From Polyangiales bacterium (lineage in GTDB: Bacteria > Myxococcota_A > Polyangia > Polyangiales > Polyangiaceae), in NCBI GenBank assembly GCA_038231275.1, contig JBBRLQ010000011.1, positions 32,001 through 96,000 of the forward strand: a stretch of 64,000 nt of DNA. Direction: 5' to 3'. Every line of letters starts with the position of its first letter. Position 1 is the stretch's first letter. Both the position numbers and the translations under genes were made by a program. A model generated the notes under the pieces. The model was given only the letters and a program-made list of their open reading frames with translations, ran no database searches and was not told where the DNA came from. Of this stretch, positions 127-38,877 are shown one piece after another.

Positions 127-504
127 CTACTTGGTCGCGCTGCTGCAGGCGGAGGGCGACGAGCAACCGCCGTTTTGCGTGCAGTCTGCACAAGTCTGCT
201 GGCACTGCTGGAGGCACTGCTGGAGTCTGCCGCCGCTCAGGTTGTCGCGGCAATTCGACGCGCACGAGCGCGCCGACGAGATGCACGAAGCAGACGGCGT
301 GCACGCGGCCGAGTCTCCTTGCCCGCCGCCGTCGCCGCCTCCGCCGTCGCGCGCGCCTGCCGCGTCGCCGCCGCCGTCGCCTCCGGGAGCGACGCCCGCG
401 TCGCCGACGATCGGATCGAAGACGTCGAAGTCGTTCGCGCAGCCGAACGCCGCCACCGAGATCGCGGCGACGAGCAGCCAACCGCCAAGACGCTCCGCCG
501 TCAA
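127..504 (-). CDS. Small Cys-rich lipoprotein
   Basis: TTG start overlaps the upstream stop (TTGA); signal peptide with AFGC lipobox; DAG/DGG linker; CxxxC-rich C-terminus. Confidence 0.7.
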   Translation of the reverse strand: MTAERLGGWLLVAAISVAAFGCANDFDVFDPIVGDAGVAPGGDGGGDAAGARDGGGGDGGGQGDSAACTPSASCISSARSCASNCRDNLSGGRLQQCLQQCQQTCADCTQNGGCSSPSACSSATK

Positions 505-1508
505 AAGACGCCTCCGATGCCGCCCGCGGTCGGCGCCAGCACGAGGCCCGTCGAGCTGGCGGGGGCTTTCTTCGGCGAGCTCACCAGAAACAGGGTGACC
601 CCGGCCGCCACGCCGATCAAGCCGATTACGAGGCCGACGTTGGCGATCGTCTGATCGCGCCGCCCCGCGTCGATGTCGTCTTGCCGCGACGGTGGGCACG
701 GTCCGCCGCGGCACGCCGTCTTCAGATCTTCGAATTTGCCGTTCGACAGGGCCCCGAAGATCGCGAACGTCGCGAGGCCGGCGACGCCGACGCCTCCTGC
801 GACGTACGAGAACGTTCGCATGCGCGCCCGGCCGGCGTCGTCGGTGGGGGCGGCCGGTGGCGCTGCGGCGACCGGCGGCGTCGTAGAGGGAGCGGCCGCG
901 GCGTCCACCGACATGGTCTTCGTCTCGCCGGCGGCGACGTCGGCACGCTGCCGTATCGGCGCGCGTCCTGGCGTATCGACGACGATCTCGGCCCCGCCCG
1001 GCTCGACCGGTACCGCCTCGGCACGGCCGCCCGGGATCTCCTCTCCCGCCACGGTGAGCTTGGTCCCAGGCTCCGCGTGCGGGACCGTCAACGTCAAGAA
1101 GCCGAGCTTGGGCGCGAGGGCCTTGCGCTCTTCGTCGGCGCTCTCCGCGGTGCGCGCGTAGCGAGGATCCTCCTGCGCGTGCTCGCGCGCCTCCACGATG
1201 GTCCGGCCGAACTCCGAGTACGCCGCCACGAGGTGACCGAGCTCGCGGTGGCATCGCGCCGTGTAGAGCCGCGCGTTGGGGCTCGCGACGATCCCGTGCG
1301 AGCCCCGGAACTCCTCGAGCGCCGCGTCGAAGCGCCCTTGCGTGTACAGCTCGCGCCCTTTGAGGAACCGCCCTTGCGCTTGCTCGCGCTGGACCGGTGT
1401 CGCACCTCCGGGATCGACTCCGTCGGCGCGCGCAGGTGCACCCGAGGCCGCGAGCGCGAGGGCCATCGCGAGCGCGGGCAGGAGGCGTCGAGGCGATCGT
1501 GCGGTCAT
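501..1508 (-). CDS. Secreted TPR/PEGA-like protein with C-terminal hydrophobic segments
   Basis: Signal peptide (ARA-D), TPR helices (GRFDAALEEF...ARCHRELG), beta-rich PEGA-like region, two hydrophobic stretches flanking a Cys pair, ends GGIGGVF. Confidence 0.8.
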   Translation of the reverse strand: MTARSPRRLLPALAMALALAASGAPARADGVDPGGATPVQREQAQGRFLKGRELYTQGRFDAALEEFRGSHGIVASPNARLYTARCHRELGHLVAAYSEFGRTIVEAREHAQEDPRYARTAESADEERKALAPKLGFLTLTVPHAEPGTKLTVAGEEIPGGRAEAVPVEPGGAEIVVDTPGRAPIRQRADVAAGETKTMSVDAAAAPSTTPPVAAAPPAAPTDDAGRARMRTFSYVAGGVGVAGLATFAIFGALSNGKFEDLKTACRGGPCPPSRQDDIDAGRRDQTIANVGLVIGLIGVAAGVTLFLVSSPKKAPASSTGLVLAPTAGGIGGVF

Positions 1509-3395
1509 TCAGATCCCCAGCGGATCGTATTGCTTCTTGGGTTTCGGCCCCGGCGGCGGCGGACGAGGCCCCGGCGGAATCACGTTCGGGGTCGGGGTCG
1601 AGGTCGGGGTCGAGGTCGGGGTCGAGGTCGGGGTCGAGGTCGGGGTCGAGGTCGTGGTCGCGGTCGGCACGACGACCGGCTCAGGCACGGCGATGTTGGT
1701 CGCCGGGGCGGTCGGAAGGGGAGGGGGTGTCGGCTCCGCGAGCGCGCTCGGCTCGGGCATCGGGTCCGTGCCCTCCGGGGTTCGCGTCAGCACGCGAACG
1801 CCGGCCGCGACGAGGAGAAGCAGCATCGCCGCGAGCACACCGAGGACGATCCTGCGGGAACGCGCCAGTCCAGCCGCGCGCGGCGGTGAGCTCTCGATCA
1901 CCTCACCGAGCTCCCTCGCCTCCGGCATCGATGGACGTCGCGTCGGCGCGGGGAACGCTGGCGTCTCTTTGCGCGACAGATCCACCGCGAGCTCGATCGC
2001 CCACTCCTGCTGCGCGATCGCCTGAACGATCTGCGGCGCCACGCGCGTCACCTCTTCGTAGTCTTCCGGGTGGGCGACGCTGACGATGGCCGGCGTCACG
2101 GCGGGCGGGGCGGTCGCGACCGCGCGCGTCGGCGGCTTCGTGAGCGGCTTGGCGCCCGGTGGCGGCGGAGGTTTTTTGGGCCGTGCCGACAGCGGCGGGG
2201 CTGCAGCGCTGCTCGCCGGCGGGGCCGCGGTCCCTACCGTCGCCTGGAGCAGCATTCCTGCGCCGATCTCCGCGGCGTCGTCGGGCGCGCGCGCCTTCGC
2301 CGGTGCGGCTTCGGGGATCGACGCGTGTCCGACCGGCGTTCCCGGGATCGCGTCGACGAGCGCGCGCGCGAGGACGTCGCTCGGAATGGCGATCGCCGGC
2401 GTTGGCAGCGCCGCCACCTTTCGAATGTGCGCAGACGGGGGCGGGGCGAGCAGCGTCCTCCGGCGCTCGCCGATGCGATCGGTCGCCAGCTCCTTGAGCG
2501 CGCCCGCCACCGCCGACTTCAACGCGAGCCTCGCGCCCGCGACCTTTCGCACCTCCGCGGCCATCTCCGCGGCCGTCGCATACCGCGCGGCCGGATCGGC
2601 CCGGAGCGCGCGCGCTGCGATCTCTGCGAGCGGCGCCGCCCACTCGTGATCGAGTGGCGCCTGCGCGAGGTCCAGCCGATCGCTGAGCTGGCGCGGCAAG
2701 ATCCGCCCGTCGCTGTCGCCCGGAAAGAGGCGCTTGCCCGCGAGCGCCTCCCACAGCATGACACCGACGCTGTACACGTCTGCCCGTTCACTCGGCTGCG
2801 CGTCCGCGTCACCAAGCCGCACCTCCGGCGCGACGTACCCGAGCGCCTCGGGCGCGTTCCGCCCACCGAGCGCGCGGCATGCGTGCGCCATTCGGGCGCC
2901 GCCATCGAGGCAGAGGAGCACGTTCGCCGGACATGCCTCGCCGTGGATCAGCCTCCCCGGCGCGCCCCGCGCATCCTTCAGCGCGTGCAGCGCGCTCAGC
3001 GCAGCGAGGACATCGACCAGGATGCGCAGGTGGAGCACGAGCTTGAGCGGCCGGCCGATCTTGACGGCCGACGCCGTCACGACGTCGTACCGCTCCGCGT
3101 CGAGAAACTCGCTGATGACGAGCACGTCTCCCGGCAGCTCCTCGACCGCGCGTACGCGCGCGACGTTCGGATGCGCGAGCGTCGCGACGAGCTTGCCGGC
3201 GCGCACGAGCCCTTCGGCAGCGTCTTCGTTCCCCTGGCGCGGGAGGCGCTCGACCACGACGAGCTCCGTCAGCCCATCCTTCCCGCGCGAATGCGCCGCA
3301 TAGGTCGGGACACGCCGCGCGCCGAGCTCGCGCACGATCGTGAAAGCTCCCAGATTGGTCCCGCCGGCGAGCACGGGCGCGCGCGTCGCGGCCAC
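1509..3395 (-). CDS. Membrane Ser/Thr kinase-fold protein with degenerate catalytic motifs (pseudokinase)
   Basis: [21 protein letters not shown] retained; VAIK is VVVE, HRD is HGE, DFG is AHA; TM helix, Pro/Thr stalk, tail YDPLGI; GTG 6 nt after TATGAT. Confidence 0.8.
1594..1653. repeat. 12-bp tandem repeat (GGGGTCGAGGTC)x5 encoding TSTP units
   Basis: Directly visible; lies in the stalk of the 1509-3395 CDS. Confidence 0.95.
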
Positions 3396-3451: not shown

Positions 3452-4531
3452 TCACTTCACGGGAAAGAGCTGCCGCTTCTGCCACGCGGGGAGGCCCCGC
3501 ATGTCCGCCCAGACCTCGCGCGGCGACGTGTAGCGAAACGCCTCTCGCCGCCGAAGCATCTTCGCGATGAGCGCGCCGAGCGGCGTCCCGATCGCCTCCG
3601 CCCGCCGCCGCGGCTCGCCCTCGGAGACTTGCTTCGTGAGCTCGGCGTACTGGAGATCTTTGTCGATCGCCGGACTGCCCACGAGCATCCAGTAGAGGAG
3701 CAGCCCCGCCTGGTAGAGATCGCTCTGCTTGGTCGTGTAGCCGGTCGCGAGGATCTCCGGCGCCATGATCACGTGGTGCACGACGTTCGGCCGGATCGCC
3801 GCCATCCCGCGCAGCTCGTGGCTGATCCCGAAGTCGGAGATCTTCACCACCGGCCGATCGTGATGCGTGATGAGCACGTTGCCGGGGTGCAGATCGTCGT
3901 GCACGACGTCGTTGTCGTGCAAAAATTGGATGGCGGCGAGCAGCTGGCGCGCGAGCTCCAGGACGAGCCCCTCTTGCATGGGCGTGCCGAGCATCGCGGT
4001 CAGCGGGTGATCGCAGCGCTCGAGCGCCAGGTAAAAGAGGTGGTTTTGCTCGAAGGCGTCGTGGATGTAGACGACGTTCGGGTGGCGCAGGCTCATGAGC
4101 CGCTGCACCTCGCGCGCCCACTCGCCGTACACCTCTTGGTACGGGCGGTTCGACGGTCGCATCATCTTCATCGCGTAGACCTGATCGAACGGTCCCACCG
4201 TCTCGTAGACGGCGCCGAATTCGCCAGCGCCGAGGACGTCGCGCACGACGTAGCTCCCTTTGGGCGACGACAGGGTGCTCCCGACCTGCGGATACTGGAC
4301 GGTGATGACCTGCGTCTGCGCCCCGGGCGCCACGAACTGCGGGCCCGTCGGCACGCGCGTCGACGGGTAGCCGGTCGACATCGGCGGCGTTCGCTGCGAC
4401 GCGGGCGCGCTCGACGGCGCGGGCGGAACGAGCGGCGAAGGGGCGGGCGCCGGCACGGGCGCGGGAGGCGATGCGGCGGGGATGACCTGCGTCTGAACGC
4501 GCTCACGGTAGTTCGGAGGACGCTCGGTCAC
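3452..4531 (-). CDS. Cytoplasmic Ser/Thr protein kinase
   Basis: [38 protein letters not shown]; no TM; GTG 6 nt after TACAGT. Confidence 0.85.
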
Positions 4532-4594
4532 GCTGGAACTGTACCGCAAAGATCCCTTCGGCCCACGCGAAAGGACATATCCTCGCGACCTAGC

Positions 4595-7345
<2,751 letters not shown>

Positions 7346-9793: not shown

Positions 9794-9970
9794 ATGCCCT
9801 TGGAAATTCCGAACTACGACAGCATCGTGGGTCGCGCGGTGCGTCCCATCGCCGAGGATCCGGTCCCGGCCAGTCTCCCTTCGAGGACACGCGAGATCGA
9901 CGATGGGTGGGATCTGAACCACGTCGAGCTCGACCTCGACGAGCTCGAGGAGTGCCTCTCGCGCCCCTGA
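9794..9970 (+). CDS. Small acidic hypothetical protein (58 aa)
   Basis: ATG ORF filling an otherwise empty gap; protein-like composition (DDGWDLNHVELDLDELEECLSRP). Confidence 0.45.
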   Translation: MPLEIPNYDSIVGRAVRPIAEDPVPASLPSRTREIDDGWDLNHVELDLDELEECLSRP

Positions 9971-10040
9971 CACGCGCCGCTCCGTTTGCGTAGCCACCGA
10001 TGCGTTTGCGTCCGCGCCGTTCGTGCGCGACAACCAGCGC

Positions 10041-10865
10041 GTGACGAGCCTGAGCCCCCGCCCGATTCGCTGGACGAGCCGGCTCCTCGCGATCCTGTCG
10101 ATCGTGAGCCTGTCGGCGTGCATCCTCCTCGTCGACACCGGCACCGATCTCGGCGGCACCTGCCACATCCGCGGCGAAGCGACCGCGTGCGGCGCGTGCC
10201 TCTCGACCAAATGCCGCGCCGAGCTCGACGCATGCTGCGGCGACGGCACCTGCGCCATCCTCCTCAATACCTTGGACTCCTGCGTCGCGGATTTTTCGCA
10301 GCCCACCTGCACGCTCTTCTCGACGAAGCTGCCGGTAGCGACGACCACCACCGATCGCCTCCGCTCATGCGCGGCCGACTGCGCCCCGATCTGCGACGCG
10401 ACCCACGGCGGATCGTCGGGCAGCTCCGGCGCCTCTGGAGGCGGCCCGTACGTGACCGGGTGCTCCAGCTTCATCGCCAGCGAGTGCGACTGCTCCGGCG
10501 ATCTCGCCGCCAACGGCACCACGTGCAGCAGCGACTCGATCGGCGCCGGCGTGTGCTGCGCCGACTACGGATGGCCGAACAAGGGTCTCAGCTGCTCGTG
10601 CAAGGCGTACCGCTGCAAGGCCACCGGCGCCGACTCGTGCACGTGCGGCACCTCCGTGAGCGGCCCCGATTCGACGTGCAACGGGACCCACTGCTGTATC
10701 TTCGAGGGCTGGTGCGACTGCAGCGCGAAGGCGTGCGACACCTCGTCGAAGCCGGTCGCGTCGTGCACGAAGGCCACCGCGACGTGCCCGAGCGGTCGCG
10801 CGGTGACCTCGTGCTCTCTCAGGCCCGGCGAGACGCTCCCGCCCCTCGACGGCGGCCCGGGCTGA
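10041..10865 (+). CDS. Cys-rich lipoprotein
   Basis: LSAC lipobox; two Cys-rich domains joined by a GSSG linker; start could be 10023. Confidence 0.8.
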   Translation: MTSLSPRPIRWTSRLLAILSIVSLSACILLVDTGTDLGGTCHIRGEATACGACLSTKCRAELDACCGDGTCAILLNTLDSCVADFSQPTCTLFSTKLPVATTTTDRLRSCAADCAPICDATHGGSSGSSGASGGGPYVTGCSSFIASECDCSGDLAANGTTCSSDSIGAGVCCADYGWPNKGLSCSCKAYRCKATGADSCTCGTSVSGPDSTCNGTHCCIFEGWCDCSAKACDTSSKPVASCTKATATCPSGRAVTSCSLRPGETLPPLDGGPG

Positions 10866-13491: not shown

Positions 13492-14211
13492 TCAGAAGGC
13501 GCCGGAGATTCGAAGGCCGCCTACCGTCGGCGTGACCTCGACGCGGGGGATCGGGCCCGAGGCGCGGAGATCGAGGATGCCCCACACGACGCCCGCGGCT
13601 GCGAGGGCGCCGCCGGCTACGTACGCGACGGTCGCGACGGTCGCGTCGGTCTTCGCGACGTCTTGGTCGTGCGTGGCGGTCGTCTGCACCGGCTCCTTCA
13701 CGCCGTCCGCGTGCTTGCCGTTCGACAAGAGGGTGAACGCGATGCCGGTGCCGACGCCCGCGACGCCGAAGCCCGCGACGATCCAAGGCGCAGCGCTCGG
13801 CTTCTTCTCCGGAGGCTTTCGCTCCGCCGCGCGTCGCTTCTCGGCCTCGCGCTCGGCGATCTGCCGGCGCAGCGTGGCGATGCGCTGCTGGATGGCCCCC
13901 TTGTCCTTCGCGTCCGGCTGCACTGCGAGGAAGTCTTCGTACGCCTTGGCCGCGCTCGCGAGATCTCCGAGGCCTTCGTACGCGCGCGCGAGATTGTAGA
14001 GGAGGACCGGCTCTTTTTGCAGGACGTACGCCTCCCGCAAGAGACGCGCGGCCTCCGCGAACTGCCCCTTCTGGTAGGCCACCTCACTGCGGTCGAAGAG
14101 GTCGAGCGCGCGCTGCTGCTCAGCGGTCTCCGCGAACGCGACGGTCGGCGCAAAAACCACGACCAGCGCCAAAAAGAGCCGGATCGCGAGCGGGACGAGG
14201 CACCGAGGCAT
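13492..14211 (-). CDS. Secreted TPR protein with C-terminal hydrophobic segments
   Basis: Signal peptide (AFA-E), TPR (LLYNLARAYEGLG), two hydrophobic stretches, ends GLRISGAF. Confidence 0.85.
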   Translation of the reverse strand: MPRCLVPLAIRLFLALVVVFAPTVAFAETAEQQRALDLFDRSEVAYQKGQFAEAARLLREAYVLQKEPVLLYNLARAYEGLGDLASAAKAYEDFLAVQPDAKDKGAIQQRIATLRRQIAEREAEKRRAAERKPPEKKPSAAPWIVAGFGVAGVGTGIAFTLLSNGKHADGVKEPVQTTATHDQDVAKTDATVATVAYVAGGALAAAGVVWGILDLRASGPIPRVEVTPTVGGLRISGAF

Positions 14212-14269: not shown

Positions 14270-15754
14270 GTGAGCCTCCCTACCACCATCGGTCGGTACG
14301 AGATCCTCGGCGAGCTCGCGACGGGTGGCATGGCCGAGATCCTGCTCGGCCGCGTGACGGGGCAAGGGGGCTTCGAGCGGCCAGTCGTCATCAAGCGCAT
14401 CCTCCCGCACCTGGCGCGTCAGAAGGAGTTCGTCGAGATGTTCCTCGACGAGGCGCGCATCGTCGCGCAGATCCGTCACCCCAACGTCGTCCACGTGCAG
14501 GAGCTCGGTCAGGAGGCGGGGGAGCTCTACCTCGTCATGGAGTACCTCGAAGGGGAGAGCGTCGCGGGCCTCGTAAAGCGCCTCCTCTTGAAGCAGCGCG
14601 CGGTGCCGCCGTCGCTCGCCGCGTTCGTGATTGCCGAGGCGTGCGCGGGTCTCCACGCCGCCCACGAGCTCGAGGACGCCGACGGCGCGCCGCAGCGGCT
14701 CGTGCACCGCGACGTGTCGCCGCAGAACGTATTTTTGACGTACCAGGGGCAAGTGAAGGTCATCGACTTCGGCGTCGCGAAGGCGACCGATCGCATCGCG
14801 CGCACCGAGGCGGGGCAGATCAAGGGAAAGTACGAGTACATGGCCCCCGAGCAGTGCCTCGGCGGCGCCGTGGATCGGAGGAGCGACGTCTTCGCGCTCG
14901 GCGTCCTCTTGTACGAGCTCGGGACGATGCGGCGCCTCTTCAAGCGCTTCAACCAGATGCTTGCGCTGAAGGCGATCTGCGAGGAGCCGGTCGTTCCTCC
15001 ATCGCGGGCGGCGCCCTCCTTTCCCCCGCGCCTCGAGGCGATCTGCCTCCGCGCGCTCGCCAAGAATCCCAACGATCGCTTCGCGTCGGCCGCCGACATG
15101 CGCCGCGAGCTGCTCGCATTCCTTCGCGAAGCCAGCCCAAGGGAGCACGCGCCGGAGCCTAGCGAAGAGCTCGCGGCGGTGATGAACGACGTCTTCGCCG
15201 ATCGCATCGAGGAGAAGCGCGAGCTGCTCCGAAAGATGGGCTCGGGCTCGGCGGTCACGCACGTCCCCGCGGGAGAAGCCGACACCGAGGTCGACGTTCC
15301 CGGCGTCGATGCGGGCGCAGGCCTCACCACGGGGACGGGCTCGTCCCTCGACACGCCCGCCGGCATTCCGCGCCGCCGCACCACCTCCTTCGCGCTCGTC
15401 CTCGCGTCCCTGGTCCTGGTGGGCGCCGCGGCGTTCGTCCTCGTGCGGGTGAGATCGCACCCTCCTCCGCCGTCCGCCGCGGCGATCGCGACTCCGACTC
15501 CGACTCCGACTCCGACTCCGACTCCGACTCCGACTCCGACTCCGACTCCGACTCCGACTCCGACTCCGACTCCGACATCGACCGCCACATCGACCGCGGC
15601 GACGACCACGACCGCGACCGATCCCAGGGGCGTTCGCCGTCCCCGGGGTCCCAGGCCTCCTCCCCCGGCCGCGTCCTCCATCGCCGTGACGCCGCCTCCG
15701 CCTCCGCCGGACCCCGCGCCGGCCTCGAGCAAGGGGTTTCACCGCTTCGAATAG
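14270..15754 (+). CDS. Membrane Ser/Thr protein kinase
   Basis: LATGGMAE, VVIKR, HRDVSPQN, DFG, YMAPE; TM helix; (TP)n stalk; tail KGFHRFE. Confidence 0.92.
   Translation: MSLPTTIGRYEILGELATGGMAEILLGRVTGQGGFERPVVIKRILPHLARQKEFVEMFLDEARIVAQIRHPNVVHVQELGQEAGELYLVMEYLEGESVAGLVKRLLLKQRAVPPSLAAFVIAEACAGLHAAHELEDADGAPQRLVHRDVSPQNVFLTYQGQVKVIDFGVAKATDRIARTEAGQIKGKYEYMAPEQCLGGAVDRRSDVFALGVLLYELGTMRRLFKRFNQMLALKAICEEPVVPPSRAAPSFPPRLEAICLRALAKNPNDRFASAADMRRELLAFLREASPREHAPEPSEELAAVMNDVFADRIEEKRELLRKMGSGSAVTHVPAGEADTEVDVPGVDAGAGLTTGTGSSLDTPAGIPRRRTTSFALVLASLVLVGAAAFVLVRVRSHPPPPSAAAIATPTPTPTPTPTPTPTPTPTPTPTPTPTPTSTATSTAATTTTATDPRGVRRPRGPRPPPPAASSIAVTPPPPPPDPAPASSKGFHRFE
15491..15574 (+). repeat. Perfect hexanucleotide repeat (ACTCCG)x14 encoding (TP)14
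   Basis: Directly visible. Confidence 0.95.
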
Positions 15755-15770
15755 GTGTACCATCGCCCTC

Positions 15771-17141
<1,371 letters not shown>

Positions 17142-18215: not shown

Positions 18216-20069
18216 ATGACTACAGGGAAGAACACGAGCTCGCTCCATCGAACGGGCTTGGCGACGATGGCCTGCGTACCGCTCCTCTTTCTGTTCTTGA
18301 GCGGCGACGTTCACGAGGCCATCGCCGCGTGCAAGGAGGGATCGACCTCGCCCTGCATCGTCGGCGGAAGGAAGGGCACTGCCGAGTGCATCGGCGGCCG
18401 GATGCTGTGCGAGCCCGACAACCCGCCGCCGACGACGCCGCCGGGCGTGGTCGTCCCGCCGGGGCCGGGAAAATTCGATCTGCTCGCTCCGTCGGAGGAC
18501 GACAACGGCCTCCCGCTCAACCCGCGCTGGCGGTTCCAGGAGCAGTACCCGAACCTGCTGCCGCTCCTGACGTTCGACGCACCCCAGCGTTGCGGCAGCG
18601 AGGCGTGGAAGTCGCCGTGCACGGCGTACCCTACGACCGACGACAACTGGAGCTCCGCGAAGAGCAGCGTCCTCGGCCCCCTCTCCTCGGCCTTCGGCGT
18701 TACTGGCTGCTTGTCCGGGCACCACAACTGGATGCCGGTCACGTACACCGGGCAGCTCTACTGGGAGAGCCACTCCGAGCCGGGGACCGACGACGACTAC
18801 AACTTCCGCCTCGTCCCGCCGCCCGCCGGGAACACCGGGATGTTCATCGTCGGCGCCGGCGTCACCGGCGAGAGCTACACCATCTTCCCGACGACCGGCG
18901 AGATCCGAAAGTCGGACGGGAGCGACGAGATCTCGCCCATCGACGGGACCCGGCTCCCCATCACCGCGGGCGCGTACAGCCTCGGGGTGGAGTTCGATTC
19001 GGACGAGACCATCGACCACTTCACGACGCCCTGGTGGGTCTCCTTCCACGACGCCGTCGATGCCGTCTCCAAGGCCAAGGGGGCCATCACCAACTGCGTC
19101 GTCCTCGGCGGAACCGGCTGCACGCAGAGCGCGCTCGTTGCCCTCTTCGAGGTCCTTCGACAGAAACAGTGGGCGGTCTACAACATGGTCGCCGGAAAGC
19201 ATACGATCGTGTCCGGCCTCTACGGCCTCGACTGCGCGCACGGGTGTTTTCCAGAGATTCATCCGGTCTTCGCGATGGCGATCCGCGTGAAGGACGATCC
19301 GACCGACGAAGTGTGGGAGATCTTCGCGCGCCGCTCGGGGGACGAGGGGTTCTGCAGCGAGAAGGAGTACGCGATCGGCGGGCTCCCGAATGACGCCTAC
19401 GCGCTCCGCCTGCCGACGCGCGGCACGGGCGTGCAAGTCACCCGCGAACAGTGGGGGACCAAGTCGGGATCCATCTCTGTCAGCTATCCGCCGATCGAGG
19501 CGCGTCATGGAAAGATCGTCGCGTTCAACACCGCCAGCCTCGACGACGTGATCCACGGTGAGCTCCATCTGGCCTGGACGGGCCCTGTGATTCACCCGCT
19601 GCCAGGCGGAATCGTGACGCCGCCCCTCACGCGAGGCGCGGCGCCGCGCCCGCCGATCCCGACGGGGCCGCCGCCTTCCATCGGCCCGGGCGTCGCGCCA
19701 GCCTCGCCGACCCCAAGCAACGAGGAGGGCCTCGAGCAGATCGTCTCGAGGATGACGGATCCGCAGCGACAGATCTTTCTCGGCAAGATGCCGGCGAAGG
19801 CGGCCTTCAAGCACACGACGCCGCCGAGGGCGCTGACGTCGTCACTCGTGAAGCCGGTCCGTCCGCCGCCCGTGCCGCTCCGTCCCAGCGTAAAGGTTTC
19901 GTCGAACCCCGGGCAGCAGGCCAAGGACCAGCAGCTCATCGACGCGCTCCGCGCCGTCTTCGGGCCGAACCTCGATCAGAACCTGCCGCCGCGCCGGGCC
20001 CCGAGGCCGCCGCACTGCCACACGAACCCCAGGACGGGAGTCGTCGTCTGCACCGACGGTGGGCCGTGA
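18216..20069 (+). CDS. Secreted hypothetical protein with Pro-rich C-terminus
   Basis: RBS AAGGAAG; hydrophobic N-terminus; motifs DDDYNF, EFDSDETIDHF, GLDCAHGCFPEIHP. Confidence 0.75.
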   Translation: MTTGKNTSSLHRTGLATMACVPLLFLFLSGDVHEAIAACKEGSTSPCIVGGRKGTAECIGGRMLCEPDNPPPTTPPGVVVPPGPGKFDLLAPSEDDNGLPLNPRWRFQEQYPNLLPLLTFDAPQRCGSEAWKSPCTAYPTTDDNWSSAKSSVLGPLSSAFGVTGCLSGHHNWMPVTYTGQLYWESHSEPGTDDDYNFRLVPPPAGNTGMFIVGAGVTGESYTIFPTTGEIRKSDGSDEISPIDGTRLPITAGAYSLGVEFDSDETIDHFTTPWWVSFHDAVDAVSKAKGAITNCVVLGGTGCTQSALVALFEVLRQKQWAVYNMVAGKHTIVSGLYGLDCAHGCFPEIHPVFAMAIRVKDDPTDEVWEIFARRSGDEGFCSEKEYAIGGLPNDAYALRLPTRGTGVQVTREQWGTKSGSISVSYPPIEARHGKIVAFNTASLDDVIHGELHLAWTGPVIHPLPGGIVTPPLTRGAAPRPPIPTGPPPSIGPGVAPASPTPSNEEGLEQIVSRMTDPQRQIFLGKMPAKAAFKHTTPPRALTSSLVKPVRPPPVPLRPSVKVSSNPGQQAKDQQLIDALRAVFGPNLDQNLPPRRAPRPPHCHTNPRTGVVVCTDGGP

Positions 20070-20100
20070 TCCCGTTGCTGACGTGGTATCAAAGGAGGGA

Positions 20101-22851
20101 ATGCTGGCCGCTGCCGGGGACTCCTTTCGCCTCGTAGGCACGGTCCTCGAGCGCAAGTACCGCGTCGATCGCCGCGTCGCGGAGGGTGGGTTCGGCGTGG
20201 TGTACGCGGGTCATCACCTCGGTCTCGACGTCCCGGTCGCTGTGAAGGTGCTGAAGCCGAGCGAGGACGCGAGCGCGGGGCTGGCGTCGGTCCTCGAGGA
20301 GGCGCGCCTCCTCGCGAAGCTGAGGCACCCGTGCATCGTCGCCGCGCTCGACTCGGGCCTCACGTACGTGGAGGCCCTCGGCCGCGACGTGCCGTGGATC
20401 GTGCTCGAGTGGGTCGATGGCGAGACGCTGCGCGACGATCTGTCGCGGCGGCGCGCCACCGGGTCACGCGGTCGATCACGTGTAGAGTGCATGGATCTAC
20501 TTCGGCCGGTGCTCGAGGCGATCGCAGCGGTCCACGAGGCGGGGATCGTCCACCGCGATCTCAAGCCGAACAACGTGATGCTCGCGCCCGGCGGCAAGGG
20601 CAACGTCACCGCCCGTGTGCTCGACTTCGGCGTCGCCAAGCTGATGCGCCGCGAGGAGAGCGAGGCCATCCCCACCGGCGATACGGCGACGGGCACGCGC
20701 GGCTCGGCGTTCACGCGGGAGTCGGCAGCGCCCGAGCAGCTGTCGGGCGCGCGCACGGGCCCGTGGACCGACGTGTTCGCGCTCGCGCTGCTGCTCGTCG
20801 AGGTCCTCACCGATCGCGCGCCGTGGGGCACGACCGACGCGAATGAGCACTACCGCGCCGTCTTTGCTCCGGAGCGGCCGACGCCGGCGCGCCTCGGCGT
20901 GGACGTCGGCGCGTGGGAGGCGATCGTGGCGCGCGCGCTCTCAGTGCGCCCGGCGGATCGTCCGCCGAGCGCGCGCGCCCTGCTCGAAGAGCTCGACGGC
21001 GCGCTGGCGACGGCGTCGCGGGATGCGCCCCAGGGTGGGGTCGCGACGTCTGACAGCGTGCTCCCGGACAGCGGTTTCGCGGCGACCGAGCGCCGCGCGG
21101 ACGACGCCGCCCCCGAGACGACCGCTCGCGCGCGGCGCAACGGCGCGGTGCTCGCGCTCGCCGCGATCGCAGGCTTGGCGGCGCTCTCGTTGGGAGCCTT
21201 CGCGATCCGCTCGCGCGACCGCGGACCGAGCGCGGTCGCGTCGCCCGACGTCGACGCCGCCGCAGCAGCGCGCCCAGGCGTCTTCGCGCTCGCGTCGCCG
21301 CCCTCGCAGATCACCCGCGCAGGCGACTGCTCGGGATCGCCCATCTTCGCGGAGGACGGCTCGATCGTCTTCGTCCGCCAGGAATCGGGCGCGAGCCGCC
21401 TCGTCCGAATCGATCCCGCGACGCACGAGGAGCGCGCGCTCACGAGCGATCCTGGTGGCAGCGCCTCGCGTCCCGCGCCCGGCGAAGGCGGCAGCGTCAC
21501 CTATTCGTTCCGTCCGAAGGGGAGGGCAGCGACGGAGGTGCGTACCGTGCCGCTCGCCGGCGGCGCGTCGCGAAGCCTGGAGCGCGGAGACGATCCGTGG
21601 TTCGCCGGCGGTTTTCTCTTCTTCCTCCGGGGCGACGATCGGGCCATCCGTCGGCGGGCGCTCGACGGGAGCGTCGACGATGTCGTCTTCGAGGCGCCCT
21701 CCACCTCGCTCTTCGAGAGCCTCGTCGTCTCCCGGGACGCACGCTGGATCGCGGCGACGAAGGGGGGCCTGGATACCGGTCGCCCCGCCAAGCCGCTGTG
21801 CATCGGCGAGGTAGGGTCGGGGAGGCCGCTCGACTGCACGTCGGCGGGCTTCACCACCGGGCGCCGCGCCGCGTTCTCTCCCGATGGCCGCGCCGTCTAT
21901 CTCACCCGGCAGGATTCGATCGTCCGCTTGGAGCTGGCGACGCTCGAAGCGACGACGGTGCCGGTGTCGCCGAGCGCGACGAGCCTCGCCATCGCCAAAG
22001 ACGGCGAGCGCATGGTCATGTCGACGTGCCGGACCGTCTACGAGGTCTTCCGCGGTGACGGGGGCGCGACCGCTCCGCTCGCGGCGGCCGTCGGCGCCGT
22101 CGGCTCCCCGGCAGTCGGTCCGCGCGGCGAGCTCGCGTTTCCTGTCGCCGCCGGCGGGTTCACCGCGCTCGCGTTCGCCGCGGACGGCGCCGCGTCGCGT
22201 CGCGTGCTGACGACGGGAGAGCGCCTGATCACCGAGGCCGCGTTCTCCCCCGACGGGACGCGGATCGCCTTCCACGACGGCGCAGCGGGTGGCGGAATCT
22301 TCGTCGTAGAGGCCGACGGCGATCGCGGTCCGACGCGCCTGACGTCCGATCCCGCCGACGCGACGCCGTTCTGGCTCGATCAAGAGCACGTCGTCTACAT
22401 GCACCCGGAGGAAGGGCTCGCCTATGGCCGCGTGTACGTCGTGTCCGCCGTCGGTGGCACCCCTACGCCGCTGCCGAAGGTGCCAGGTACGCTCGTCGGC
22501 GCGGTCCCGTCGCGCGGCACGTTGCTCCTCGCGTACCAGAACCCTTCGGGCGACAAGCTCGTCGAGGCGACGCGCGCGGGGAAGGTCCACGACGTGGCGC
22601 TCGCCGGGAGCCCCCCCGACATGCGCTGGGAGACGTACACCGCAGCGTCTCCGGGCGGGCGTCACCTTGCCTGGTTCTCGGGCGGCAAGGCGTGGCGCGC
22701 GGACTTGACGACGGGAAAGGCCGCGCCGGTCGAGATCGACGCCCCGAGGGGCGCGCCGATCTCGATCCAGCCCGACGACGAGGGGCGGGTGACGTCGTCG
22801 TTCCGTCACTCCGAGGGGCAGCTCTACGAGGCGCGCGGCACCTTCCGCTGA
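20101..22851 (+). CDS. Membrane Ser/Thr kinase with extracytoplasmic TolB-like beta-propeller
   Basis: RBS AGGAGG; GGFGVVY, VAVK, HRDLKPNN, DFG, APE; TM; AFSPDG repeats. Confidence 0.9.
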   Translation: MLAAAGDSFRLVGTVLERKYRVDRRVAEGGFGVVYAGHHLGLDVPVAVKVLKPSEDASAGLASVLEEARLLAKLRHPCIVAALDSGLTYVEALGRDVPWIVLEWVDGETLRDDLSRRRATGSRGRSRVECMDLLRPVLEAIAAVHEAGIVHRDLKPNNVMLAPGGKGNVTARVLDFGVAKLMRREESEAIPTGDTATGTRGSAFTRESAAPEQLSGARTGPWTDVFALALLLVEVLTDRAPWGTTDANEHYRAVFAPERPTPARLGVDVGAWEAIVARALSVRPADRPPSARALLEELDGALATASRDAPQGGVATSDSVLPDSGFAATERRADDAAPETTARARRNGAVLALAAIAGLAALSLGAFAIRSRDRGPSAVASPDVDAAAAARPGVFALASPPSQITRAGDCSGSPIFAEDGSIVFVRQESGASRLVRIDPATHEERALTSDPGGSASRPAPGEGGSVTYSFRPKGRAATEVRTVPLAGGASRSLERGDDPWFAGGFLFFLRGDDRAIRRRALDGSVDDVVFEAPSTSLFESLVVSRDARWIAATKGGLDTGRPAKPLCIGEVGSGRPLDCTSAGFTTGRRAAFSPDGRAVYLTRQDSIVRLELATLEATTVPVSPSATSLAIAKDGERMVMSTCRTVYEVFRGDGGATAPLAAAVGAVGSPAVGPRGELAFPVAAGGFTALAFAADGAASRRVLTTGERLITEAAFSPDGTRIAFHDGAAGGGIFVVEADGDRGPTRLTSDPADATPFWLDQEHVVYMHPEEGLAYGRVYVVSAVGGTPTPLPKVPGTLVGAVPSRGTLLLAYQNPSGDKLVEATRAGKVHDVALAGSPPDMRWETYTAASPGGRHLAWFSGGKAWRADLTTGKAAPVEIDAPRGAPISIQPDDEGRVTSSFRHSEGQLYEARGTFR

Positions 22852-36517: not shown

Positions 36518-37918
36518 ATGGTACAGCCCGAGGTCACCTCCAGCTCGCTTCAGCCTGGCGTCATGGTGGCCGGCAAGTACCGCATCGAGGCCGAGCTCGG
36601 CCGCGGCGGCATGGGGTGCGTCTACCGCGCGCACCATCGCGCGCTCGCGCAGCCCGTAGCCATCAAAGTGCTCTTCGGGCGATCGCCCGCGGACGTCGCT
36701 CGGTTTGCCCGCGAGGCACGGGCGGCGGCGCGTCTTCAGAGCGAGCACGTCGTGCGCGTCTCCGACGTCGGTGTCGCCGATGGGGTGGGCCCCTACATGG
36801 TGATGGAGCTCCTCGAGGGCTCTGATCTAGGACGGCTCGTCGATCAACAGGGGCCGCTCGCCGTTCCGTTCGCCGTCGACGCGATCCTGCAGGCCATCGA
36901 CGCGCTCGCCGAGGCGCACGGGCTCGGCATCGTCCACAGAGATCTCAAGCCGCAGAATCTGTTCCTTGCGACGCGCTCCGACGGGACCTCGATCGTCAAG
37001 GTCCTCGACTTCGGGATCTCCAAGGCGAACGCGCTCGATGACGAGACGCAGAAGCTCACCGAGACGCGCGCGCTCATCGGCTCGCCGCACTACATGTCCC
37101 CCGAGCAGCTGCGCTCCGCGCACGACGTCGACGCGCGCGCCGACATTTGGTCCTTGGGCGTCGTCCTCTACGAGCTCCTCACGACGAAGACGCCGTTCGA
37201 TGGCCGCACCGTGGGAGCCGTCTTCGCGAGCATTCTCGAGAACACGCCGAGCCCCGTGACTGCGCTGCGGCCCGACGTGCCGCCCGCCGTGCAGGCTGCG
37301 ATCACGCGGTGCCTCCAGCGCGATCCCGAGCACCGGTACCCGCACATCGGAGAGCTCGCGCTGGAGCTCGCGCCGTACGGGAGCGGTCGAGAGGCGGCGA
37401 GCGTCGAGCGAGCGTCGTCCTTCGCGACGCGCGCGGGCGCGAGACTTCCGTCCGGATCGGGGATGCGCCCCGCCGCGACCGTGACGCCGAACCCGAGCGC
37501 GTCGGCCTGGACGCCTCCGCCCGCGAACCTGCGGGTTGCGCCGTCGCCGAATCGCGCACGCGCGCCGTGGCTGGCCGCGCTCGCGCTCGGCGGGGTCGTG
37601 ATCGGCGCGGTCGTGGTCCTCGGCGCGCTGGGCGCGCTCGGGAAAGGGAAGGGGACTCGATCCGTCCCGCCGGTCGCGTCGAGCCCGACGGTCGCCGCCG
37701 CGAACGACGATCTCGCGCCGCCGGTCTCGCCGATCCTCACGGCCGATCCCCCGCCGACCGGCGCGCCGCCGCCGTTCGCTTTGTCCGCGTCGTCTGCGCC
37801 CATCGCGGTCGCGCCGCCGCTGCGCCCCAAGCCTCCGCCGCGCCCCACTCCGTCGACTCCCGCGGTATCCTCTCCGGAGCCTCCGAGCACGGAGCCGGAC
37901 CTCGACCGCCGCCGATGA
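36518..37918 (+). CDS. Membrane Ser/Thr protein kinase
   Basis: LGRGGMG, VAIK, HRDLKPQN, DFG, YMSPE; TM; Pro-rich stalk; tail DLDRRR. Confidence 0.93.
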   Translation: MVQPEVTSSSLQPGVMVAGKYRIEAELGRGGMGCVYRAHHRALAQPVAIKVLFGRSPADVARFAREARAAARLQSEHVVRVSDVGVADGVGPYMVMELLEGSDLGRLVDQQGPLAVPFAVDAILQAIDALAEAHGLGIVHRDLKPQNLFLATRSDGTSIVKVLDFGISKANALDDETQKLTETRALIGSPHYMSPEQLRSAHDVDARADIWSLGVVLYELLTTKTPFDGRTVGAVFASILENTPSPVTALRPDVPPAVQAAITRCLQRDPEHRYPHIGELALELAPYGSGREAASVERASSFATRAGARLPSGSGMRPAATVTPNPSASAWTPPPANLRVAPSPNRARAPWLAALALGGVVIGAVVVLGALGALGKGKGTRSVPPVASSPTVAAANDDLAPPVSPILTADPPPTGAPPPFALSASSAPIAVAPPLRPKPPPRPTPSTPAVSSPEPPSTEPDLDRRR

Positions 37919-38877
37919 CACGCGCCAGAGTCACGCGCCTCTTCCTCCTCGCTTCACTCCTCGCGCCCGCCGCGCGGGCGGAGCCGTCCGCGCAAGACAA
38001 GGCGCAGGCCGACGCGTTCTTCCGCGAGGGCCGCGCGCTCATGAACGACGGGAAATACGGGCTGGCATGCGGAAAGCTCGCCGAGAGCCAGCGCCTCGAT
38101 CCGGCGCCCGGCACGCTCGTGAACCTCGCTCTCTGCCACGAGAAGGACGGGCAAACCGCGAGCGCGTGGGCCGAGTTCAACGAGGTCGCCGAGCGGCCCG
38201 GCGACGACAAGGCGCGCGGCCCGTTCGCGCGAACGCACGCGCAGGAGCTGGAAAAAAGGCTCTCGCGCGTGCGCGTCAGGGTCGCGGCGGTGGCTCCGGA
38301 CGAGGCCGTCGCCATCGACGGCCGCACGCAAGGCGCCGGCGCGTGGGGATCCGCGTCGCCGCTCGATCCGGGCGAGCACACGGTGGTCGTATCGGCGCCC
38401 GGCAAGAAGAGCTGGCAGACTACGGTGCGCCTCGCGCAAGGCCCGGTCGTCGTGGACGTCGAGGTCCCAGCCCTCGAAGAGCTCCCGGTAGCGCGCCCGG
38501 TGATTCCGCCGGCGCCGCGTGACGTCCCGGAGAGCGCGCCGCCCGACGGTCGCGGCCAACGCACGGTGGGCTACGTCGTCGGCGGGGCGGGCGTCGTGGC
38601 GCTCGGCGTCGGCGTGGTCTTCGGCCTCCGCACGCTCGGCAAGAAGAGCGACGCCGACGCGCTCTGCCCAAACAACAAGTGCGCCGGGGATCCGCGCGTC
38701 GCCGATCTCGACGACGCCGCGAAATCCTCCGCGCTCATCTCGACGATCGCGGTCGGCGTCGGCGCGGTCGCGATCGCCGCCGGCCTCTACCTGGTCCTCG
38801 CCGCGCCCGTCGCAGGAGTGAAATCCGCGGCCGTCGCGATCTCGCCGACCGGCGCCTCGCTGATGGGGAGGTTCTGA
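37915..38877 (+). CDS. Secreted TPR/PEGA protein with C-terminal hydrophobic segments
   Basis: ATGA overlap with the kinase; signal peptide; TLVNLALCHEK; LDPGEHTVVVSAPG; Cys pair; ends SLMGRF. Confidence 0.85.
   Translation: MTRARVTRLFLLASLLAPAARAEPSAQDKAQADAFFREGRALMNDGKYGLACGKLAESQRLDPAPGTLVNLALCHEKDGQTASAWAEFNEVAERPGDDKARGPFARTHAQELEKRLSRVRVRVAAVAPDEAVAIDGRTQGAGAWGSASPLDPGEHTVVVSAPGKKSWQTTVRLAQGPVVVDVEVPALEELPVARPVIPPAPRDVPESAPPDGRGQRTVGYVVGGAGVVALGVGVVFGLRTLGKKSDADALCPNNKCAGDPRVADLDDAAKSSALISTIAVGVGAVAIAAGLYLVLAAPVAGVKSAAVAISPTGASLMGRF

Follow-up and report, generated by a model that had tools for sequence, protein, structure and literature searches.

Paired genes for membrane Ser/Thr kinases and exported TPR proteins in a Polyangiales genome: conserved kinase tail ends and their predicted docking in a TPR groove

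The closest described relatives of the system reported here are membrane-bound Hanks-type Ser/Thr kinases that have a periplasmic partner. In Pseudomonas aeruginosa, TagQ (a lipoprotein) and TagR (a protein of the periplasm) have been proposed to dimerize PpkA, the Hanks kinase of the H1 type VI secretion system (T6SS) (PMC13713981), and in Serratia marcescens RtkS is a co-encoded periplasmic partner of PpkA (PMC6082577). This analysis concerns a family of gene cassettes in which a membrane kinase gene (K) is paired with a gene for an exported tetratricopeptide repeat (TPR) protein (T) and, in some cases, with a gene for a Cys-rich lipoprotein (L). The cassettes were found in a 64,000-nucleotide stretch of DNA, referred to as the window, which comprises bases 32001 to 96000 of contig C11 of a Polyangiales bacterium (genome of 9.28 Mb in 164 contigs). 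The host is a soil or sediment myxobacterium whose near relatives are Polyangiaceae or "Myxococcales" metagenome bins.

The K-T cassettes resemble the PpkA systems in that a membrane Hanks kinase would be controlled on its periplasmic side by an exported protein encoded with it, and in that the complex would include a lipoprotein (TagQ in P. aeruginosa). Dimerization is the proposed means of activating PpkA in the TagQ/TagR system, and output there passes through an FHA-domain protein, as gene linkage suggests for the cassettes also. The two kinds of system differ in that the periplasmic domain of PpkA is folded, whereas the outer part of the window's kinases consists solely of a disordered tail that ends in a motif, in that T, a TPR-PEGA protein, brings a membrane hairpin of its own, and in that PpkA systems occur one per T6SS whereas about 60 paralogous pairs with class-specific tail motifs are present in this one genome. 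No TagR, TagQ or RtkS family was found among the Pfam and NCBIfam matches of the T and L proteins, although it was not checked whether these libraries hold such models. In a Foldseek search, one chain of the RtkS-PpkA crystal entry 9k1u, 77 residues long, was a neighbor of the T3 model (TM score of 0.65, target normalized). An earlier, sequence-only reading of the window had stated that no characterized mechanism was known for such a system; this was too strong, since TagQ/TagR-PpkA and RtkS-PpkA are characterized periplasmic partner systems of Hanks kinases. No publication on the TPR(-PEGA)-hairpin family was found in literature searches, whose coverage did not extend to the kinome survey of Perez et al. 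(2008), and the literature mentioning "PEGA domain" concerns other topics, judging by title.

The sequence-only reading had described three K/T/L trios in the window, and all nine genes were present at, or close to, the positions that it gave.

K1, 1509-3395, minus strand: predicted membrane Hanks-type pseudokinase with one transmembrane (TM) segment and a 95-residue Pro/Thr tail ending YDPLGI
T1, 501-1508, minus strand: signal peptide, TPR, PEGA-like domain, Pro-rich linker, Gly-rich helical hairpin, GGVF end
L1, 127-504, minus strand: small Cys-rich predicted lipoprotein, 11 Cys
L2, 12640-13485, plus strand: Cys-rich predicted lipoprotein, 45 Cys
T2, 13492-14211, minus strand: short form with signal peptide, TPR, linker, hairpin and SGAF end, without PEGA
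K2, 14270-15754, plus strand: active-type membrane kinase with a 102-residue Thr-Pro tail ending KGFHRFE
K3, 36518-37918, plus strand: active-type membrane kinase with one TM segment and a 96-residue Pro-rich tail ending DLDRRR
T3, 37915-38877, plus strand: signal peptide, TPR (residues 26-113), PEGA-like beta-sandwich (117-184), linker, hairpin (213-296), MGRF end
L3, 38878-39489, plus strand: Cys-rich predicted lipoprotein, 21 Cys, with an acidic Gly/Asp linker

In cassette 1 (minus strand), T1 abuts the stop codon of K1, and the TTG start of L1 overlaps the stop of T1 (TTGA). The start of K1 is uncertain, with candidate GTG codons at 3395, 3428 and 3455, the last of which overlaps the stop codon of a soluble kinase gene located upstream. 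Cassette 3 (plus strand) has an ATGA overlap between K3 and T3, and L3 abuts the stop of T3. Cassette 2 is rearranged: K2 and T2 are divergent and L2 is merely convergent with T2, so that its assignment to the cassette is by proximity alone.

The pairing of K with T was found to extend far beyond the window. A T profile, iterated once on six-frame open reading frames (ORFs), matched 118 ORFs at an E value of ≤1e-5, of which 87 reach the hairpin module; with the addition of T2, this gave 88 T members. A kinase profile detected approximately 305 kinase-domain ORFs in the genome. For 40 of the 87 T members, a kinase stop codon was located ≤150 nt upstream on the same strand, while fewer than one such case is expected from kinase density (an estimate). 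When looser limits were applied to members with an N-terminal domain outside the profile and the T2-K2 pair was added by hand, 63 of 88 T members were adjacent to a kinase, in the order K to T in 51 cases, T to K in 10 and divergently in 2. No ORF in this genome, the only one in which fused forms were sought, matched both the kinase and T models. Each of the 21 genomes covered by a relatives search had between 2 and 95 matches to the T family, and, at E ≤ 1e-15, the family was matched in at least 61 of 151 genomes sampled across the phylum, these counts being lower bounds because 14 candidates per genome were scored. A neighborhood survey, which the sequence-only reading had proposed as a check on the trio, revealed conserved linkage in other genomes: among 40 loci, consisting of the first-listed one or two matches (three for genome G166) from 26 genomes, 23 were paired (20 K to T, 2 T to K and 1 divergent) and 17 had no kinase. 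The K-T pair is thus a genuine unit of kinase plus TPR co-receptor that is conserved and has undergone strong expansion.

The K-to-T loci came nearly all from the same family, order or class, while T was mostly without a kinase in more-distant genomes. From these kinase-less genes it follows that T, often with a lipoprotein, is the older unit and kinase pairing an expansion in this lineage. In four kinase-less loci, T is followed by a Cys-rich lipoprotein gene with a MopE-type motif (PF11617). Four others (L040, L043, L046 and L047, from genomes G087, G092, G137 and G142 of another family of the phylum) have a gene for a cytoplasmic GAF histidine kinase preceding T.

The T proteins of the window exhibit 29 to 31% mutual identity (T1 scores an E value of 1.7e-81 against the hidden Markov model of the family), and each has a cleavable-type signal peptide with an AxA site and two hydrophobic segments. 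The two C-terminal hydrophobic segments and the G-x-F termini (GGVF, SGAF and MGRF) reported in the sequence-only reading were seen; its TPR(-PEGA) assignment was accurate for T1 and T3, which have a PEGA-like domain, but not for T2, which has none. Pfam scores for the TPR were 35.4 for T2 (TPR_2; gathering cutoff, 27), 20.1 for T1 (TPR_16; cutoff, 32.7) and 18.4 for T3 (TPR_2; cutoff, 27), and TPR_2 matched 58 of 74 family members at E ≤ 0.1. The PEGA model (PF08308) scored 18.5 bits with T3, against a cutoff of 20.8, and matched 26 of the 74 members at E ≤ 0.1. Searches of the PDB by sequence returned generic TPR proteins only, those of the ESM Atlas returned only "hypothetical protein" clusters of Myxococcota, and database homologues of T are named either "hypothetical protein" or "PEGA domain-containing protein."

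An AlphaFold2 model of T3, built on a 74-sequence alignment, had a mean predicted local distance difference test (pLDDT) score of 85.7. It predicts a five-helix TPR domain (residues 26-113) and a beta-sandwich (117-184), both with pLDDT values of 92 to 98, a low-confidence linker, and a C-terminal module of two long helices (213-250 and 260-296) separated by a short loop and followed by a weak C-terminal hairpin. The modeled TPR aligned with that of LGN (VIA-align; Z score of 15.5, root mean square deviation of 1.2 Å over 89 residues) and also with PP5, Tom70, SycD, LpoP, Rap/NprR and the Pro-rich-peptide-binding domain of collagen prolyl hydroxylase. The beta-sandwich resembled the transthyretin-like domain of carboxypeptidases, carboxypeptidase entries being the best Foldseek matches (E value of 5.7e-4). 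C251 and C256, the Cys residues of the far hairpin tip (C-x4-C; window positions 38665-38682) are nearly invariant in the alignment, as are C52 and C74 in the TPR; the tip pair lies on the far side of whichever membrane holds the hairpin. T proteins end in Phe in 68 of 88 cases and in an aromatic residue in 71 of 88, compared with an aromatic end in 691 of 13,794 long ORFs. The terminal Phe had been likened to the signal recognized by the beta-barrel assembly machinery, a comparison that did not survive modeling, in which a helical hairpin and no beta-barrel was predicted.

The kinase domains of K1, K2 and K3 scored 38.5, 121.4 and 156.4 bits, respectively, with Pkinase (PF00069; gathering cutoff, 31.7). 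Each kinase has one TM segment and an outer tail of 95 to 102 residues with a Pro content of 27 to 32%, and no domain was matched in these outer parts by a Pfam scan. Partner kinases in the genome at large had the same form: 60 of 63 had one TM segment, with a median tail of 100 residues (interquartile range, 90 to 111) and 24% Pro, compared with 152 of the 242 other kinases, for which the median tail was 140 residues (85 to 327) with 10% Pro. The median was again 100 residues in 35 K-T pairs from other genomes. The Pro/Thr-rich stalks of the sequence-only reading and the ends that it listed were therefore correct, but its description of the ends as distinct was not, since a few C-terminal motif classes recur genome-wide. 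Both the K1 tail (approximately 1560-1640) and the K2 tail (approximately 15460-15560) contain Thr-Pro or Thr-Ser-Thr-Pro runs encoded by short DNA repeats; such repeats could allow rapid changes in tail length, which nonetheless stays near 100 residues. Another membrane kinase of the window (19894-22848, plus strand) has a large outer part with a match to PD40 (beta-propeller) repeats and, hence, its own sensor domain.

The catalytic residues (Lys of VAIK, Asp and Asn of HRDxxxxN, and Asp of DFG) were retained in 62 of the 63 partner kinases, K2 and K3 among them. K1 was the sole exception among the 63, having EENH in place of KDND, and is a pseudokinase as judged by these residues. It lies directly downstream of a second kinase gene.

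3452-4900, minus strand: soluble active-type Ser/Thr kinase gene (Pkinase, 137.6 bits), directly upstream of K1

The stop codon of this gene is at 3452-3454, while the start is not fixed and the open frame (3452-5587) extends to 5587. K1 and this kinase may represent a receptor pseudokinase paired with a soluble kinase.

Partner kinases were grouped according to the ends of their tails. For TPR-type T genes in the K-to-T order (n = 38), the kinase ended in Phi-D-x-R-x in 19 cases, in D-P-[YW]/NPY in 6, in D-x-G-Phi in 3 (including K1) and in other sequences in 10. For those in the T-to-K order (n = 9), the end was of the NPY type in 8. Where a helical N-terminal domain with four Cys residues replaces the TPR of T, the partner kinase had a C-x(19-21)-C tail loop in 13 of 14 cases by pattern, and two Cys residues occurred within the last 60 tail residues in all 14; a Cys-loop partner was found for none of 49 TPR-type T proteins. 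This four-Cys variant comprises 14 cassettes (for example, C8:111773-114117, C13:149507-151888 and C1:230190-232818), in which T continues with the same PEGA and hairpin parts, the hairpin tip having C-x3-C in place of C-x4-C, and in which the last part of the kinase tail is a disulfide-type loop of the form C-x-P-P-[FY]-T-x-D-x-x-G-x(4)-K-x-E-C-[LF]. A strict C-terminal Phi-x-x-R-x motif was present in 13 of 63 partner kinases and in none of the 242 others, and ends of the form D-P-x-Phi-x-x-R-x recur in other genomes.

Conservation of the tail end was assessed with 12 kinases from 20 same-genus loci, each with a complete ORF, ≥60% identity to a kinase of this genome and a detectable TM segment. 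Mean identity between orthologues was 0.84 for the kinase domain, 0.47 for the tail without its last 10 residues, 0.87 for the last 10 residues and 0.92 for the last 6 (Wilcoxon P = 0.00024 for conservation of the tail end). For K3, a single difference was observed in the last 12 residues in the neighboring locus L001 (73% identical). The end of the tail thus appears to be under purifying selection.

The complex of T3 with the K3 tail, one of the checks that had been suggested, was predicted for this cognate pair with T3 residues 22 to 200 (alignment A3), the last 50 residues of K3 (alignment A4) and three controls. The features concerned are as follows.

T3 TPR domain, 37990-38253, plus strand: concave groove in which the end of the kinase tail is predicted to lie
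T3 Gly-rich helical hairpin, 38551-38802, plus strand: putative anchor, helices 213-250 and 260-296, pLDDT 74 to 81
K3 C-terminal docking motif (predicted), 37886-37915, plus strand: last 10 residues STEPDLDRRR, class Phi-D-x-R-x

The prediction scored 0.65, whereas the best control scored 0.38. Of 157 solved complexes, 116 attained that mark, as did 2 of 215 mismatched pairs; the counts apply only roughly here since our own alignments were used. Agreement of contacts between runs was ≥97%, and the pLDDT of the partner was ≥47. Predicted contacts were limited to the last 11 residues of K3 (residues 40 to 50 of the modeled tail), which lay in the TPR groove against T3 residues 32-33, 36, 40, 58, 62, 64-67, 69-70, 73, 96-98 and 100-104. 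In the model, the conserved Arg at position −1 contacts residues 32, 33, 36, S58, D62 and 64-67 (G66 and T67 included), the hydrophobic Leu at −4 packs against 40, 66, 69, 70 and 73, and Pro at −6 and Asp at −5 lie against 98 and 100-104. Grooves paired with the D-x-R class carried S58 in 19 of 19 cases, D62 in 15, G66 in 19, T67 in 17 and R101 in 16, while those of the NPY class had A58 in 14 of 14 and were without the D-x-R set. Distances among K and among T proteins were correlated (Mantel r = 0.38, a value reached by none of 2,000 permutations). That the TPR grips the kinase tail, as proposed in the sequence-only reading, is well supported in silico by class covariation, tail-end conservation, the complex prediction and linkage.

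In its predicted use of a three-helix-pair TPR whose groove holds the last residues of a partner, T resembles the TPR clamps of Hop, CHIP, Sgt2, Tom70 and FKBP that bind the EEVD ends of Hsp70 and Hsp90, and structural neighbors of T3 included TPR-peptide complexes of this kind (1elw, 3kd7, 4cgv, 5lyn and 3fp4; 5mgx and 5njx). Unlike the EEVD clamps, the K-T pair is bacterial, extracytoplasmic and tethered to membrane on both sides, with Phi-D-x-R-x, NPY-type or D-x-G-Phi ends; the likeness is that of a common TPR fold.

L1, L2 and L3 are lipoproteins as judged by a lipobox after a hydrophobic stretch (AAFG-C, MAIG-C and SLTA-C, respectively), from which lipidation is predicted. None had a Pfam or NCBIfam match at E ≤ 0.1, and no BLAST similarity was detected among them or to 24 other cassette lipoproteins at E < 1e-3, in keeping with the differing Cys-rich domains (11, 45 and 21 Cys) noted from the sequence alone. 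Alignment A2 of the lipoproteins yielded nothing meaningful. When 27 cassette lipoproteins were compared (BLAST E < 1e-5), 16 were singletons and the largest cluster had 5 members. An abutting lipoprotein gene followed 26 of 88 T members, compared with 77 of 1,000 random long-ORF ends in the same screen, and a lipoprotein followed T at 9 of 40 loci in other genomes. The proportions were 10 of 25 for kinase-less T, 16 of 63 for kinase-paired T and 9 of 19 for the D-x-R class. The lipoprotein had been put forward as the sensor of the system; an obligate role of this kind is at odds with its presence after only 26 of 88 T members and as often after kinase-less as after kinase-paired T. It is an optional, variable accessory of T, which it follows rather than the kinase.

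A motif after the lipobox, C-x-x-[ILVF]-[LVATI]-[GDNP], was present in 17 of 26 cassette lipoproteins compared with 58 of 1,627 lipoprotein-like ORFs; it is often followed by Asp and recurs in distant genomes (L019, L035, L041 and L042). A role as a T-binding site was considered and rejected, the motif also being present in many lipoproteins encoded away from T genes, and it may be a general, perhaps lineage-specific, signal for lipoprotein sorting or tethering. A further Cys-rich lipoprotein-like ORF (9918-10862, plus strand), which encodes 33 Cys and had no match in Pfam, is located some 2 kb away from cassette 2. In RcsF-IgaA, NlpE-CpxA and LpoA/LpoB-PBP, a lipoprotein that contains Cys and has an extended disordered linker is proposed to contact its partner across the periplasm. 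Those relays feed histidine-kinase phosphorelays or cell wall synthases, while the lipoprotein here is facultative and heterogeneous and its partner is putative.

The gene that follows K2 suggests a route for output.

15771-17141, plus strand: FHA-domain sigma-54 enhancer-binding protein (FHA, 56.6 bits; Sigma54_activat, 210.1 bits; HTH_8), 16 nt after K2

A gene for such an FHA-sigma-54 activator was located ≤3 kb from 16 of 63 partner kinases, compared with 14 of 242 others, and the protein encoded after K2 is a probable output regulator. FHA-domain sigma-54 enhancer-binding proteins are known in Myxococcus xanthus; like them, this one adjoins a Ser/Thr kinase, as known here from gene linkage.

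Taken together, the probabilities tip slightly toward K and T being a two-gene split receptor with tail-groove docking, altered kinase activity and output through FHA-sigma-54 proteins. In this reading, which builds on the pairing, architecture, motif classes and tail-end conservation evident in the sequences, K would be a Hanks-type kinase of the inner membrane, with nothing outside the cytoplasm except a disordered, Pro-rich tether some 100 residues long that ends in a short motif. T would be exported by the Sec route, and its TPR groove, as predicted along with the rest of the fold, would capture the terminal motif of K. The PEGA-like domain of T, together with the variable Cys-rich L in about a third of cassettes, would form the input surface, and the Gly-rich helical hairpin would hold T at a membrane. 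Occupancy or a changed geometry of the K-T(-L) complex would then alter kinase activity, and in a quarter of cassettes the signal would pass to the FHA-domain sigma-54 activator encoded nearby, as linkage suggests.

Several observations weigh against the split receptor. The evidence for binding is all computational, and passing the prediction may reflect likeness to known complexes, because TPR-peptide complexes have already been solved. The contact columns were barely more class discriminating than other TPR columns (median mutual information of 0.49 versus 0.39; one-sided P = 0.028) and were not more conserved within a class. Clade membership confounds both the motif classes and the groove signatures, and 13 of 63 partner tail ends, including the KGFHRFE of K2, fit no class. 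The 25 of 88 T members and 17 of 40 loci from other genomes that lack an adjacent kinase imply that T has a kinase-independent function. A look-up of RNA sequencing runs returned none that contains the K3-T3-L3 stretch. Finally, the long tethers on both K and T are unexplained if both proteins are in the inner membrane. Some of these points would be accommodated if K and T were merely co-transcribed envelope proteins that duplicate together without contact: co-duplication alone is enough to produce the Mantel correlation and the class covariation, and T occurs without a kinase in distant genomes. We consider this very improbable, since conservation of the final 10 residues matches that of the catalytic domain while the remainder of the tail drifts, the strict end motif is confined to partner kinases and the complex prediction passed its controls. 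The same docking evidence, comprising motif classes, prediction and tail-end conservation, would be expected if T were a stabilizer or gatekeeper that caps the kinase C terminus against tail-specific periplasmic proteases, or keeps the kinase inactive until the tail is released, the signal then being regulated proteolysis or release. In favor of such a role, the extreme C termini of both K and T are conserved, and RtkS is needed for the stability of Serratia PpkA (PMC6082577). No protease gene was seen in the cassettes, although no search was aimed at proteases, and the variable PEGA and lipoprotein parts, as well as kinase-less T, would be left without explanation; this role for T is in our view unlikely.

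Docking is also retained in a trans-envelope bridge, a corrected form of the model in the sequence-only reading, which differs from the split receptor only in where the anchor lies and in what sort of signal is conveyed. The hairpin of T would lie in the outer membrane, the kinase tail of about 100 residues would span the periplasm to reach the TPR, and the complex, with an optional lipoprotein of the surface or outer membrane, would report outer-membrane or surface events. This arrangement is a serious candidate, if a somewhat doubtful one; for the location of the hairpin we lean slightly, and with low confidence, toward the inner membrane on grounds of biogenesis. An ordinary signal peptide with two hydrophobic stretches is the textbook route to an inner-membrane hairpin, and the segments of T resemble ordinary TM helices on the Kyte-Doolittle scale (1.9 to 2.6). 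The signal peptides of T1 to T3 have no lipobox Cys, so that the Lol route of SlyB-type proteins would be closed to T, and we know of no outer-membrane route for a helical, nonlipidated protein. Glycine-zipper 2TM hairpins do occur in the outer-membrane lipoproteins SlyB and YfgH, which share with T a Gly-rich two-helix hairpin beside a beta-sandwich domain but differ in having a lipobox, a Pfam glycine-zipper match and the reverse domain order. The Pfam glycine-zipper models gave no match with T1 to T3 at E ≤ 0.1 and were absent from the 25 of 48 families listed for 74 members. Several properties of the hairpin nevertheless fit the outer membrane better: its segments contain medians of 5 and 3 Gly per 19 residues, and on a biological hydrophobicity scale their medians were +1.18 and +0.62, compared with −0.84 for kinase TM segments. 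The far-side loop has a net charge of −1.28 and the near-side flanks +0.86 and +2.18, contrary to the positive-inside rule for an inner-membrane hairpin, and a disulfide in the nearly invariant C-x4-C of the far tip would be possible only outside the cytoplasm. The aromatic C termini of T point the same way, as does the constancy of kinase tail length, in this and other genomes, against a drifting sequence. The length of the tail and that of the T linker were negatively correlated in this genome (rho = −0.33, P = 0.023, n = 48), although not significantly so in others (rho = −0.22, P = 0.21, n = 35). Also in favor of the outer membrane, homologous TPR-PEGA modules of this genome are fused to bona fide outer-membrane modules. 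In one locus (L073, C42:32919-35855), a gene encoding a TPR, three PEGA domains, a Plug and a TonB-dependent barrel directly follows the gene of a kinase that has a single TM segment and a Pro-rich tail of 107 residues, and TPR-PEGA-DUF3570 fusions occur at C5:40283-42115 (L078) and C13:61470-63257 (L079), without an adjacent kinase. The L073 arrangement recalls TonB-dependent transducers of the FecA type, in which an outer-membrane protein with an N-terminal periplasmic signaling extension is encoded beside an inner-membrane signaling protein; unlike these, the T proteins of the window have no barrel, and the inner-membrane partner is a Ser/Thr kinase rather than an anti-sigma factor. Unanchored TPR-PEGA partners of 217 to 314 residues also follow kinases, which argues against a bridge.

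The most far-reaching form of the proposal is a peptide-in-groove address code, in which about 60 pairs per genome would be kept apart by C-terminal motifs on periplasm-spanning tethers, each read by its own TPR groove, with the partner anchored in the outer membrane by a nonlipidated Gly-zipper hairpin. We put it forward tentatively, as more unlikely than likely. If it is true, outer-membrane and surface events would be wired directly to Ser/Thr phosphorylation and sigma-54 transcription, and the hairpin would be a new way of retaining a protein in the outer membrane. With the hairpin in the outer membrane, the K-T pair would also be a trans-envelope link of a new kind. Should the pairing code prove correct, orthogonal peptide-TPR pairs would be available as a natural set, and the family would serve as a model for the multiplication of signaling pathways without cross talk; the docking question itself can be reduced to a 10-residue peptide and a small TPR ectodomain. 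Myxobacteria have hundreds of Ser/Thr kinases, many without a recognizable sensor domain, and signal reception by these kinases is an outstanding question. The K-T family would cover about a fifth of the kinases of this genome (63 of 305), and docking of K to T may explain how many sensor-less kinases receive signals from outside the cell.

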